From IMG/VR virus record IMGVR_UViG_2534681993_000039, positions 1-8,277 of that record: a stretch of 8,277 nt of DNA. One strand, written 5' to 3'. This document shows positions 4,110 through 8,277 of the stretch, one piece after another. The notes under the pieces were generated by a model. It searched no databases. It was given only the letters and a program-made list of their open reading frames with translations, and had not been told where the DNA came from. The position numbers and the translations under genes were made by a program. This DNA is from a virus. Its lineage: Duplodnaviria; Heunggongvirae; Uroviricota; Caudoviricetes. Position 1 is the stretch's first letter. Each line of letters begins with the position of its first letter.

Positions 4110-4475
4110 TTACTTCGTCATGCCATTCAGGGTGTCGCGGCAGACTGTAGCCAGCCGCTGAATTTCCAGCACGGTGTCTTCTGTGTCGGCATGGCGATGT
4201 GTGATGCGGATGCTGTCGGCAATCACATCGACGATTGCAGAGGATGGGCGCTGGTAAATGCCAACAACGGACGGGGTGCCACCTTCAATGCGGTAAAGCC
4301 TGTAATTTCCCTCGTGGCTGTCAATCATGTAGCGACCATCAATAACAATCTTTCCGTCAGCGAGCTGCGGTACAGGCAGGGATTTCAGGTACATGTCATA
4401 ACGTTCCCGCACGCGAACGGCAAGATCACGCTCTGTGTTGAGCAGGTATTCAAGAAAGTCGTTGGCGAGAATCAT
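4110..4475 (-). CDS. hypothetical early protein (121 aa), translationally coupled to the replication gene
   Basis: ATG 4475..4473 with AAGAGGA 8 nt upstream (rc of 4476-4492); stop TAA 6 nt before the A start. No family recognised. Confidence 0.6.
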   Translation of the reverse strand: MILANDFLEYLLNTERDLAVRVRERYDMYLKSLPVPQLADGKIVIDGRYMIDSHEGNYRLYRIEGGTPSVVGIYQRPSSAIVDVIADSIRITHRHADTEDTVLEIQRLATVCRDTLNGMTK

Positions 4476-4616
4476 TGCGGCAATCCTCTTGTTACAGATG
4501 TGCGAAGGCCTCCCGCCACAAGGTGCAGGAAAGGCCCGGAACAGGAATTAATGGAGTTTGTTTTGCTGCCGGATGAGCTGCTGAAGCCCGACGTGGTTTC
4601 CGGCAGTTGGAGGTGC

Positions 4617-5512: not shown

Positions 5513-5800
5513 TTAATCTGCTTTCTGTATTTCAGCTTCTGAATCCATACAAATAATTTCGATATAGGGTTCATCGCCATTAACCTGGCGTGCCTTTTCA
5601 GCTTCGCTAATGATTTCTCGTACGGTCTGGTACGGAAGTTCCACAAGCAGTCGCGTGCCGTTCAGATAAACGTAAGTGGCTTCGTCGGCTCCGTTTTTAC
5701 CCGCCGGAGTCACTCCGTCAATAGCGGATGCACGTAATAACAGTTCACCGCGACAATCAATAAAACGGATAAATACACCTTGTGCATGGTCTTTGGTCAT
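5513..5800 (-). CDS. hypothetical protein (95 aa)
   Basis: Internal ATG 5800..5798 with AGGTG ribosome-binding site (rc of 5801-5815) chosen over the ORF-track start at 5914, which would overlap the upstream gene by about 100 nt. No family recognised. Confidence 0.5.
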   Translation of the reverse strand: MTKDHAQGVFIRFIDCRGELLLRASAIDGVTPAGKNGADEATYVYLNGTRLLVELPYQTVREIISEAEKARQVNGDEPYIEIICMDSEAEIQKAD

Positions 5801-5810
5801 AAAGCACCTG

Positions 5811-6149
5811 TTATAAATCAGCCTGTTTAATAAAACTTTGCCCGCGAAGCAGACGATCAACCGTGCGAAGTGCTTCGTATAATGTGAAATCCTGCCCGAA
5901 CTGATTGTCACCACAGCTCAATGCAAAAATGCGGTTTCCGGTAAACGGATTGCGTGGGCATTTGTGGATCACGATTCCAGCTTTCTCAATCAGCCAGGCG
6001 TGCTCGCCGATTTGTTTTACTGGGTAGCCATCCGGCGTTGCGTGTGTATCACTCAGGCTGTAGCGGATGTTGCTGCGTGATGCACTGGTAGTGAAACGGT
6101 TAGCGTGGCGTTCTGTTCCGGTACGAAAATTACGGCGTTGCTTCAGCAT
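5811..6149 (-). CDS. hypothetical early protein (112 aa)
   Basis: ATG 6149..6147 with GAGGTG 7 nt upstream; lies immediately downstream of the cox-like gene. No family recognised. Confidence 0.55.
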   Translation of the reverse strand: MLKQRRNFRTGTERHANRFTTSASRSNIRYSLSDTHATPDGYPVKQIGEHAWLIEKAGIVIHKCPRNPFTGNRIFALSCGDNQFGQDFTLYEALRTVDRLLRGQSFIKQADL

Positions 6150-6163
6150 AAAATGACACCTCG

Positions 6164-6442
6164 TTATTTTGTCATCTGCACGTATTTTTCTGCGCTCCTG
6201 ATTGTTTTCAGGAAAAGAGCGAAGAGATTTACTGTGCGTCTTGAGTTCTTTTCATCCTGGTTGATGGGAATTGAACCTCTGTCAGCCTGTCTTTTCACTG
6301 TGTTAACAGCTTGGTTGGTACGCTTTGCGTAATCTTTCAGGCTTTCTTCAAGTACTGGTAACCCATGCTCATCGCGGTAGGGATAGAACGCTGCTAAACG
6401 CTCAAAGTCTGCCTGTTCGTGTGTGTTCAGGACTTTTGCCAT
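6164..6442 (-). CDS. small DNA-binding protein in the Cox/Apl position (putative lytic-switch regulator or excisionase), 92 aa
   Basis: First gene of the - strand operon, divergent from the repressor gene. DYAKRTNQAVNTVKRQADRGSIP resembles a helix-turn-helix. No clear similarity to P2 Cox as I recall it, so the call rests on position and size. Confidence 0.5.
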   Translation of the reverse strand: MAKVLNTHEQADFERLAAFYPYRDEHGLPVLEESLKDYAKRTNQAVNTVKRQADRGSIPINQDEKNSRRTVNLFALFLKTIRSAEKYVQMTK

Positions 6443-6538
6443 GTGTGATAACCTGCGCTATCTGTGGTTGTTTGTGACTCGGTGTACTTATAAGTACACC
6501 TTGTGCGCAAGCTTAGTGTACTTATAGGAACACTGTCA
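6443..6538. promoter_or_regulatory. divergent switch/operator region between the cox-like and C-like genes
   Basis: 96-bp intergenic region. Perfect 20-bp palindrome GGTGTACTTATAAGTACACC at 6481-6500; related imperfect palindrome AGTGTACTTATAGGAACACT at 6515-6534; both share the direct repeat GTGTACTTATA, centres about 34 bp apart. Candidate - strand promoter: -35 TTGACA (rc of 6534-6539), -10 TAAGCT (rc of 6510-6515). Candidate + strand promoter: -35 TTGTGC 6501-6506, -10 TATAGG 6523-6528. Confidence 0.5.
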
Positions 6539-6847
6539 ATGCTTATCGGTGAAAAAATTAGAGTGATTCGTGAATCAGAGGATTTAACGCGCGAAGAATT
6601 TTGCGGCCTGATTGATGTGCCTATCGGCACTTTGCGTCGTTATGAAACGGGGCGGATTGAAAACATAGGGGGCGAAGTGCTTATCAAGATTGTTAATCAC
6701 CCTCGCTTTTTTAAGTACATGAATTGGCTTATGACGGGAAAAACAAATGAGGCTGCTGGGCAGATCAGTCCGTCTCTCTCCCCTGATGGGCCAAAAAGCA
6801 CATCGCCTTCTCAAAAATCCCGCAAGACTGGTACACAGCCCGGCTAA
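6539..6847 (+). CDS. P2 C-like immunity repressor (102 aa)
   Basis: GEKIRVIRESEDLTREEFCGLIDVPIGTLRRYETGR...PRFFKYMNWLMTGKT...GQISPSL parallels P2 C as I recall it (GEKI, VP.GTL..YE.GR, KY..W.MT, GQI.P.L). ATG 6539 chosen; the in-frame GTG at 6503 is an alternative. Followed by int on the same strand, as in P2. Confidence 0.7.
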   Translation: MLIGEKIRVIRESEDLTREEFCGLIDVPIGTLRRYETGRIENIGGEVLIKIVNHPRFFKYMNWLMTGKTNEAAGQISPSLSPDGPKSTSPSQKSRKTGTQPG

Positions 6848-6896: not shown

Positions 6897-7871
6897 ATGA
6901 GCATAAAATCAATTCCGGGAGGGTATCTTCTTGACATGCGCCCTGAGGGGCGTAAAGGCAAACGCATTCGCAAAAAATTTAAAACGAAATCGGATGCAGT
7001 TTTATATGAGCGGTGGGTGCTGGCGCAACAGCATAACAATGAGTGGAAAGGAAACTCCATTGATCGCCGTCCGCTGTCAGTGCTTATTGACTTGTGGTGG
7101 AAATACCACGGCCAGCTAATGAAGTCAGGGCATAACATGCGCCTTAAATTGCTGCGCTTGAGTGAGGCAATGGATGACCCGTGCGTGCATAAACTTAATA
7201 CAACGATGCTCACCGAGCTACGTGTGTCCAGGATAGAGCAGGGGATACAGCCCAGCACCATAAATCGAGAGATTGGGGCGTTAAGCGCGATGTTTACCGC
7301 ACTCATCTCATCCGGCCATTTTCTTAACGATAACCCCGTTCAAGGCCTTAAAGGAATGAAGGTTAACGAGCGCGAAATGGGATATCTGAGTAAGTCTGAA
7401 TGTGTTCAGTTGCTGGATGCACTGGCTGAAAATCCCGATGAACGGCTGGCTGTCGAAATCCTTCTGTCGACCGGGGCGCGATGGGGCGAGGTAGCGGCAC
7501 TGGAGCAGCGCCGTGTTCTTCATTGTCGAATCACTTTTTCAAAAACGAAGAACAGCAAAAACCGTACCGTTCCTATTTCTGAAAGCCTGTTTGAAAAGAT
7601 CAAAAAACGGGGCGGGAAACTGGTGTTTCCGACGCTGGATTATCCATTGGTTCGCGATGTCATCAAAACGGTCGCACCAGATGTTCCTGACGGCCAGGCT
7701 GTTCATGCGCTGCGCCACACCTTCGCCAGTCATTTCATGATGAACGGCGGCAATATTCTGACGCTCCAGAAAATTCTGGGGCACGCAAAGATTCAGACAA
7801 CGATGATTTATGCCCATCTTGCGCCGGATTACTTGCAGGATGCGGTGAGATTTAATCCTATTGCTGGGTAA
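6897..7871 (+). CDS. int: P2-like tyrosine integrase (325 aa)
   Basis: N-terminus MSIKSIPGGYLLDMRPEGRKGKRIRKKF and C-terminal catalytic region HALRHTFASHFMMNGGNILTLQKILGHAKIQTTMIYAHL (R, H-x-x-R, H, Y) follow P2 Int closely as I recall it. Start set at ATG 6897; the ORF-track start at 6747 overlaps the C gene and precedes the region of homology. Confidence 0.9.
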   Translation: MSIKSIPGGYLLDMRPEGRKGKRIRKKFKTKSDAVLYERWVLAQQHNNEWKGNSIDRRPLSVLIDLWWKYHGQLMKSGHNMRLKLLRLSEAMDDPCVHKLNTTMLTELRVSRIEQGIQPSTINREIGALSAMFTALISSGHFLNDNPVQGLKGMKVNEREMGYLSKSECVQLLDALAENPDERLAVEILLSTGARWGEVAALEQRRVLHCRITFSKTKNSKNRTVPISESLFEKIKKRGGKLVFPTLDYPLVRDVIKTVAPDVPDGQAVHALRHTFASHFMMNGGNILTLQKILGHAKIQTTMIYAHLAPDYLQDAVRFNPIAG

Positions 7872-7881
7872 GGAGGATGTT

Positions 7882-8277
7882 GTGGAAAAAACAGTTAATA
7901 GCGATTTGCATTTAGGTCAGTACTGGAGAATAGACATTGTATGCGATCCAGAACTTCGAGATGAGGTTGAGCAATATTTTTCTCTACACGATGTTGGTTT
8001 TAGCAAAATTGAAGTTTTTTCCGTCGAAAATCCATATAAACTTGCTCTGTTCTTTGATTTCGCGAAGAAGGGTGTGGAGGTTGCAAAAGCCATTATGGGA
8101 CTCTTAGACCGAAATGATATTGAAATAACGATGTATCGTGCTACGGACAGTAGCCCGCAGTCTGTAAAAAGCATCAAATTGCGTAAGTCTGAAGACGTAG
8201 AGAAATGTAAAGATTTGCTTAGTACGTGTGTCGCAATTGGCGTTCAACGAAATAAGGAAAAAGAGGGGAGCGAATGA
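7882..8277 (+). CDS. hypothetical AT-rich protein (131 aa) translationally coupled to int
   Basis: AGGAGG at 7871-7876 overlaps the int stop codon (TAA 7869-7871); GTG start at 7882, 5 nt downstream, in frame with the ORF-track reading. GC about 40% by hand count against 55-65% in int and A. No family recognised. Confidence 0.55.
   Translation: MEKTVNSDLHLGQYWRIDIVCDPELRDEVEQYFSLHDVGFSKIEVFSVENPYKLALFFDFAKKGVEVAKAIMGLLDRNDIEITMYRATDSSPQSVKSIKLRKSEDVEKCKDLLSTCVAIGVQRNKEKEGSE

Follow-up and report, generated by a model that had tools for sequence, protein, structure and literature searches.

The stretch of DNA analysed here (the window, 8,277 nt in its full length) is 100% identical to a prophage of Escherichia coli DEC9B, which is inserted between btuC and ihfA. 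This prophage is intact, has a size of about 36 kb and belongs to the P2 family (P88-like). The left 6.1 kb of the window, containing ParM, a 940-aa replication endonuclease and small early genes, are 92–97% identical to P88-like phages (Xuanwuvirus); this similarity ends at approximately 6115–6128, within a DUF4761 gene. Further to the right, a 96-bp gap separates two genes of opposite orientation. On the plus strand, a C-type repressor gene stands first in the lysogenic operon and int is the next; on the minus strand they are opposed by a cox-type gene, the early genes and the replication endonuclease. A megablast search with the switch region gave no match in the phage collection. The region is present in more than 100 E. 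coli genomes, including O157:H7 and O55:H7. An E. coli-type switch with a 97% identical C was also seen in a 226-kb contig labelled with a Gram-positive genus (L009, Vagococcus sp. WN89Y, NZ_JBQPOM010000071.1), probably a contamination or a mislabelled assembly. The features of the locus are:

6164–6442, minus strand: Cox-like protein of 92 aa, first gene of the early (lytic) operon, from phrog_575 and its P2-like position
6446–6454, plus strand: candidate extended -10 of Pc, TGaTAACCT, with a start near 6461; low confidence, the sole plus-strand promoter-like candidate
6481–6500, no strand: predicted distal operator, a perfect 20-bp palindrome with the arms GGTGTACTTA and TAAGTACACC, in the position equivalent to O2 of WPhi
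6503 (plus or minus 2 bases), minus strand: predicted start of Pe, placed 7 bases downstream of the -10
6510–6515, minus strand: predicted -10 of Pe, TAAGCT, with an 18-bp spacer
6515–6534, no strand: predicted proximal operator with the arms AGTGTACTTA and TAGGAACACT, 8 of 10 pairs, in the position equivalent to O1 of WPhi
6526–6530, plus strand: Shine-Dalgarno sequence of C, AGGAA, read from the sequence, inside the right arm of the proximal operator
6534–6539, minus strand: predicted -35 of Pe, TTGACA (TGTCAA on the plus strand), overlapping the C start codon by one base
6539–6847, plus strand: C-type immunity repressor of 102 aa with a helix-turn-helix, from PDB, phrog_147 and HTH_3 matches
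6897–7871, plus strand: tyrosine integrase, second gene of the lysogenic operon, with Int_N and Phage_integrase domains and annotated as such in RefSeq

The gene at 6539–6847 is, from protein sequence comparison, a clear homologue of the P2 C repressor. A phmmer search matched it to the P2 C structures 2XCJ and 2L49 over residues 3–98 (E = 1.5e-15), phrog_147 was hit with E = 2.6e-30, and an HTH_3 domain was recognized. With approximately 100 aa, an N-terminal helix-turn-helix and a GQI(A/S)P-type tail motif it has the features of the family, and its invariant columns are common to P2 C and WPhi C. Amino acid identity is 46% to the C-family protein of phage L-413C, 39% to P2 C and 38% to WPhi C. 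By tblastn, C-family genes were found in 141 phage records. The opposing gene can be called Cox-like, on weaker evidence than that for C. Its sole usable match was phrog_575, 'Cox-like excisionase and repressor' (E = 1.1e-7); hhalign gave a weak alignment to the Cox proteins of P2 and WPhi over the helix-turn-helix region (probability 16%). No Pfam match and no significant PDB match (best E = 0.42) were obtained for this protein, and a pairwise similarity to WPhi Cox was not detectable.

Several other genes of this prophage deserve mention. Positions 1–1204 of the window hold ParM (245–1204) and a Plasmid_stab_B-like gene running off the left end, a pair shared with P88-like phages. The presence of a plasmid-type partition pair in an integrated P2-family prophage suggests a possible extrachromosomal phase or carrier state. 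Among the early genes, RefSeq lists a pseudogene fragment of an 'ash family protein' at 4472–4591 (4373–4492 in L001). Between int and the prophage end beside btuC there is an ORF of 131 aa, which starts at 7882 and runs off the right end of the window at 8277 (complete in L001, 7783–8178). It gave no Pfam or PADLOC match and may be a cargo gene. Outside the window, the DEC9B prophage (L172, 31900–35348) has genes for an 'ATP-binding protein' and a 'SIR2 family protein' between the tail genes and ogr, probably anti-phage defence cargo in a variable spot of P2-like phages.

Within the 96-bp gap, two operator-like sites stand out. The initial annotation had described a perfect 20-bp palindrome at 6481–6500 and an imperfect copy at 6515–6534, and both descriptions hold in coordinates and sequence, with 10 of 10 and 8 of 10 pairs, respectively. 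The two sites have the 11-mer GTGTACTTATA in common, located at 6482–6492 and 6516–6526, with a start-to-start distance of 34 bp. In the output of a repeat finder the two sites appear once as a direct repeat (18 bases, 89% identity, spacing 34) and once more as an inverted repeat. The mixed palindromic and direct-repeat character, which had been noted as worth resolving, thus comes down to two dyad-symmetric sites arranged in direct repeat. When up to three mismatches were allowed in the 18-mer core, just these two occurrences were found in the window, and none out of 200 shuffles contained two matches. Two additional 11-mers with two mismatches (at 5768 and 6710) are within chance expectation. 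With the same core and threshold, no further operator copies were found in the 40 kb of DEC9B that hold the whole prophage.

Within a site, the elements TGTAC and GTACA have their centres 11 bp apart, as far as one major groove is from the next. In its right arm, the proximal site keeps G-ACAC but departs from symmetry at two positions, 6527 (G) and 6529 (A). These two bases change TAAGTA to TAGGAA and thereby provide the AGGAA ribosome-binding site 8 bases before the start codon of C. In the relatives, AGG or GGAG likewise occurs at the position of the C ribosome-binding site. The imperfection of the proximal site can therefore be explained by its right arm also having to hold the ribosome-binding site of C.

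A leftward promoter, Pe, is predicted from a TTGACA -35 (6539–6534), an 18-bp spacer and a TAAGCT -10 (6515–6510), with transcription starting near 6503. The default promoter/terminator scan found nothing and left the TTGACA/TAAGCT pair unlisted, because TAAGCT is a weak -10 that agrees with TATAAT at only 3 of 6 positions. In a relaxed scan the same pair was the top-ranked minus-strand candidate within 200 bp (9/12, sigma-70-like). The assignment of Pe is mainly based on the register, which is common to WPhi, P2 and diverged relatives. TAAGCT aligns with the WPhi -10 TATATT, and at the same 18-bp spacing two diverged relatives have TAAGAT (L126) and TATTCT (L123), both of the form TAnnnT. The core of the proximal site fills the 18-bp spacer (6516–6533), and the distal site would lie at about +4 to +23.

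The predicted promoter bears on several statements of the initial annotation. That the second site is located between a perfect -35 and a candidate -10 is borne out by the register shared with WPhi, P2, L123 and L126, and the first site indeed comes to lie just downstream of the presumed start. The C start codon does overlap the -35, as the ATG at 6539–6541 shares one base with TGTCAA at 6534–6539. This is, however, a general feature of the family: of 75 non-redundant related switches, 60 have TGTCAA or a variant with one mismatch at the start of C, and the overlap is annotated in P2. The genes are divergent, but the view of divergent promoters has to be given up. In the family, where C and Cox are mutual repressors, Pe and Pc face each other, with Pe at the C end reading towards cox and Pc at the cox side reading towards C; about 35 bases are common to both transcripts in P2, and 82 in WPhi. 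Likewise, the sites had been placed over both promoters, of which they cover only Pe.

Since Pe takes up all of the sequence as far as the C start codon, Pc must lie to the left of 6539. For Pc, the relaxed scan offered one weak plus-strand candidate spanning 6426–6454 and nothing else there. The bases of this candidate are the reverse complement of the ribosome-binding site of the Cox-like gene, and due to this overlap the conservation of its -10 is not diagnostic. The stretch 6444–6486 contains TGTG at 6444, 6463 and 6473 and GTGT at 6482, the last three about 10 bp apart, a series that went unreported by the repeat finder. In heteroimmune variants whose Cox-like proteins are similar (L003 and L004) the stretch is conserved, and it could hold binding sites for the Cox-like protein, Pc, or both.

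The closest counterpart to this arrangement is found in phage WPhi. There, too, int comes after a C of approximately 100 aa, and TTGACA directly adjoins the start codon of C. Its Pe fragment, which was cloned for reporter and binding assays (PMC1904263, PMC1904268), reads TTGACA-GTAACC-TATTGGTGAC-T-TATATT...TATTGGTGAC; the corresponding strand of the window has TTGACA-GTGTTCC-TATAAGTACAC-TAAGCT...TATAAGTACAC. In both phages one operator sits between the -35 and -10 of Pe and another downstream of the start, with 34 bp from centre to centre. Both WPhi sites are needed for repression in vivo (PMC1904263, PMC1904268), and WPhi C binds a single site alone, as a full dimer site would allow. The two switches differ in the length of the intergenic region (152 bp in WPhi, 96 bp here) and in the site itself (TATTGGTGAC versus TATAAGTACAC). 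Furthermore, the WPhi sites have been described as non-palindromic 10-bp half-sites, in contrast to the 20-bp dyads here. Recounted from the sequence, the proximal WPhi site has a dyad of 7/9 and the distal one of 4/9, compared to 8/10 and 10/10 in the window.

The C/Cox switch of P2 itself reportedly goes back to Ljungquist in 1984. Our reference for P2 was NC_001895, because NC_041848 and L-413C carry another immunity type than true P2. P2 resembles the window in the fold family of the repressor, in gene order, in the overlap of the Pe -35 with the C start and in having Pe and Pc face to face. According to the annotation of NC_001895, the Pe -35 lies within the first codons of C, and O1 and O2 flank the -10. 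The P2 operators are 8-bp direct repeats 22 bp apart with no dyad, unlike the 20-bp dyads 34 bp apart here, and P2 C is unable to bind one site alone.

Dyad operators of 18–20 bp with half-site centres about 11 bp apart are familiar from P22 c2, 434 and lambda cI. These repressors belong to other protein families and switch layouts, the C protein of the window lacks a LexA-type cleavage domain, and there are two sites 34 bp apart here rather than the three adjacent ones of the classical repressor systems. In C.Esp1396I, two directly repeated palindromes each take one dimer, giving a tetramer, with the sites 15 bp apart instead of 34. Phage 186, likewise of the P2 family, also has face-to-face promoters and inverted-repeat operators. 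Its CI, however, is a two-domain protein of 196 aa from a different family, with three sites at pR and distal flanking sites, and has been described as probably of different origin. A switch of the 186 CI type, for which a two-domain CI of about 190 aa, a cII gene and distal flanking operators are characteristic, was rejected for the window: the repressor has 102 aa and is of the P2 C type, and in the 40 kb no remote operators as in 186, nor any further ones, were found.

Which protein the sites belong to can be judged from their covariation with C and with the Cox-like protein. In the viral contig L126, C is 69% identical and its helix-3 region PIGTLRRYETGRIENIGG is the same as in the C of the window, while the left flank is unrelated and the Cox-like protein is only 34% identical over its full length (38% in a local BLASTP alignment). 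Nevertheless, 20 of 20 bases of the distal and 19 of 20 of the proximal operator are kept (39/40), compared to 8 of 14 bases between the operators. Similarly, 19/20 distal and 17/20 proximal bases are retained in L123 despite its diverged flanks. The reverse situation is met in three E. coli prophages of other immunity, L003 (O104:H4), L004 and L006. Their Cox-like proteins are 87, 78 and 52% identical, respectively, and the C tails 81–92%, but the DNA-binding half of C is only 41–47% identical and has another helix 3, and the operators have been completely replaced. Because the sites are kept together with the recognition helix and replaced when this helix changes, they track C and not Cox.

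This comparison also bears on whether the Cox-like protein or a host factor, rather than C, might bind the sites, as Cox-type proteins act in the intergenic regions of P2 and 186 as well. The sites remain the same with a Cox-like protein of 34–38% identity (L126) and are changed with one of 78–87% (L003, L004). Moreover, Cox and Apl sites are, according to PMC7498355, short direct repeats one helical turn apart, not 20-bp dyads separated by 34 bp. We therefore regard binding by the Cox-like protein or a host factor instead of C as extremely improbable. The proposal that these are the operators of the C-like repressor gains support from the homology to P2 C, the register common to WPhi and P2, and the conservation and replacement of the sites along with the recognition helix.

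Among the E. coli variants, the last third of C is 81–92% identical and the DNA-binding part 41–47%, which places a second mosaic breakpoint within C, at approximately 6735. Since the tails are alike and the DNA-binding parts diverged, the exchange of immunity seems to proceed by recombination within the repressor gene, at a point between the parts for DNA-binding domain and tail.

Taken together, we consider it likely that the 96-bp gap is a P2-type (P88-like) immunity switch and that the two sites are the operators of the adjoining C. Bound at the proximal operator, which fills the Pe spacer, C should prevent RNA polymerase from occupying Pe. For the distal operator (about +4 to +23) the most likely role is that of a cooperative partner and second block, as in WPhi. 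From the dyad symmetry, each site would be occupied by one symmetric C dimer in the classical manner. Two such dimers, 34 bp apart, may cooperate on bent DNA. Against this reading stand the weak -10, the distance of 34 bp, which corresponds to 3.2 helical turns so that the sites do not face quite the same side of the helix, the single-base variants that a few strains have inside the sites, and the stable RNA hairpins formed by the same palindromes.

How far does this symmetry agree with what is known for the family? The seven immunity classes and the WPhi switch were reportedly defined by Karlsson in 2006 and by Liu and Haggard-Ljungquist in 1999. In papers later than those that defined these classes, published members are described as reading non-palindromic direct repeats. 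The window has two directly repeated sequences flanking the Pe -10, namely the exact 11-mer at 34 bp on either side of TAAGCT. These repeats are palindromic, with 10/10 and 8/10 pairs and a dyad that recurs in the clade. Because non-palindromy is a described property and not a criterion of homology, palindromic sites mark a variant and do not exclude the switch from the family.

To see how widespread such dyads are, C-homologue loci were collected, 80 from bacterial genomes and 80 from viral contigs. Averaged over 60 anchored loci, the dyad profile showed no more than weak peaks, as the loci differ in site sequence, in arm length and in spacing. It was replaced by shuffle tests for each locus and a clade-specific table. 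A dyad was significant in 12 of the 60 loci and hence is not universal in the family; the clades near P2 have plain direct repeats only. The anchored loci were then reduced to 34 representatives with less than 70% N-terminal identity. Nine of these have a dyad that beats 95% of the dinucleotide shuffles (1.7 expected, p = 3e-5), and in 14 the best dyad is centred 38.5–44.5 bp from TGTCAA (null 9.6%, p = 1e-6). Significant direct repeats, with a spacing of 29–34 or 20–24 bp, were present in 11 of the 34.

A single residue inserted after helix 3 (RIExIGx) distinguishes the C clade of the window. In this insertion clade a distal dyad with 6–9 of 9 pairs is found at -41 to -43, with different sequences at the same position, and the partner site is centred at -9, giving a spacing of 32–34 bp and a general form GGGTR...YACCC. 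Another example in the family is a UTI89 prophage, assigned to immunity class IX in an earlier study, with TTCACCATGTGGTGAA and a proximal TGGTGAA.

Two further records are of note in this respect. The distal site of NC_041848, 'Escherichia phage P2' (L168), is a perfect 18-bp dyad, GGAACCTATATAGGTTCC, and that of phage L-413C (L169) an 18-bp dyad with 8 of 9 pairs, GTAACCTATATAGGTTCC. Both are named or described as P2-like, but in neither is the C protein P2's own; with regard to immunity the name 'P2' on NC_041848 is misleading.

The recurrence of the dyad across this C clade suggests one dimer per palindrome. A different possibility is that C recognizes just the direct-repeat 11-mer GTGTACTTATA, with one monomer of a dimer on each copy, and that the palindromic extension is incidental or has another purpose. 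The exact 11-mer in both sites, the degenerate right arm of the proximal one, and the 10-bp half-sites of WPhi at the same 34-bp spacing would fit, and as the literature describes non-palindromic direct repeats in all classes studied, the right arms could be dispensable. However, L123 and L126 show no change in the distal right arm where the adjoining bases have diverged, and a dyad occurs at the same position throughout the clade with different sequences and is enriched in the family as a whole. In addition, G-ACAC is preserved in the right arm of the proximal site, where the ribosome-binding site accounts for both changes. Recognition of the 11-mer alone thus appears unlikely to us.

The palindromes might also act mainly at the level of RNA, either through a 5' hairpin that stabilizes the early transcript or through a long one in the Pc transcript, which would mask the C ribosome-binding site and limit translation of C. 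A folding energy of -18 kcal/mol (z = -4.3) was obtained for the Pe leader and one of -27.7 kcal/mol (z = -3.6) for plus-strand 6470–6550, with 6481–6499 pairing to 6516–6534 including AGGAA. Yet any palindrome folds as RNA, and a few strains have single-base variants within the sites, none of them with compensating changes; a credible Rfam match was likewise lacking. Lying upstream of the Pe start, the proximal copy is not part of the early transcript, and the layout is the same in heteroimmune relatives whose plain direct repeats could not form the hairpins. Hence RNA hairpins cannot explain this layout, and we rate a principal role in RNA as very improbable. In a Pc transcript starting to the left of 6481, a hairpin could be an added layer rather than an alternative to binding of the sites by C.

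Returning to the sites as operators of C, what is new here is the dyad symmetry of these predicted operators, the type of switch as such being ordinary and known. Judged by its sequence, the switch of the window is a new immunity type of the P2-type switch, with the geometry of WPhi and true palindromes. It marks a distinct immunity specificity among the P88-like prophages, a group with defence cargo that is common in pathogenic E. coli, O157:H7 and O55:H7 among them.

P2 C is among the few cited cases of symmetric helix-turn-helix dimers acting on non-palindromic direct repeats. In the crystal structure, the dimer is symmetric, its shape matches two consecutive major grooves, and it can be superimposed on P22 c2 in complex with a palindromic operator (PMC2995052). 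Still in 2015, the binding of this symmetric dimer to non-palindromic direct repeats was called puzzling. A perfect 20-bp palindrome together with a near copy in the WPhi register is a clean test object for one dimer per site. Tentatively, and with somewhat more doubt than confidence, we suggest that the 'direct-repeat half-sites' of the whole family are degenerate versions of two dyad-symmetric dimer sites, and that this clade keeps the symmetric state. If true, each so-called half-site would be a full site for one symmetric C dimer, and overlap with the promoter spacer and with the C ribosome-binding site would have eroded the proximal one. This would answer how a symmetric C dimer reads an asymmetric operator, and the operator GGTGTACTTATAAGTACACC would be a natural perfect palindrome for a co-structure with the C dimer.
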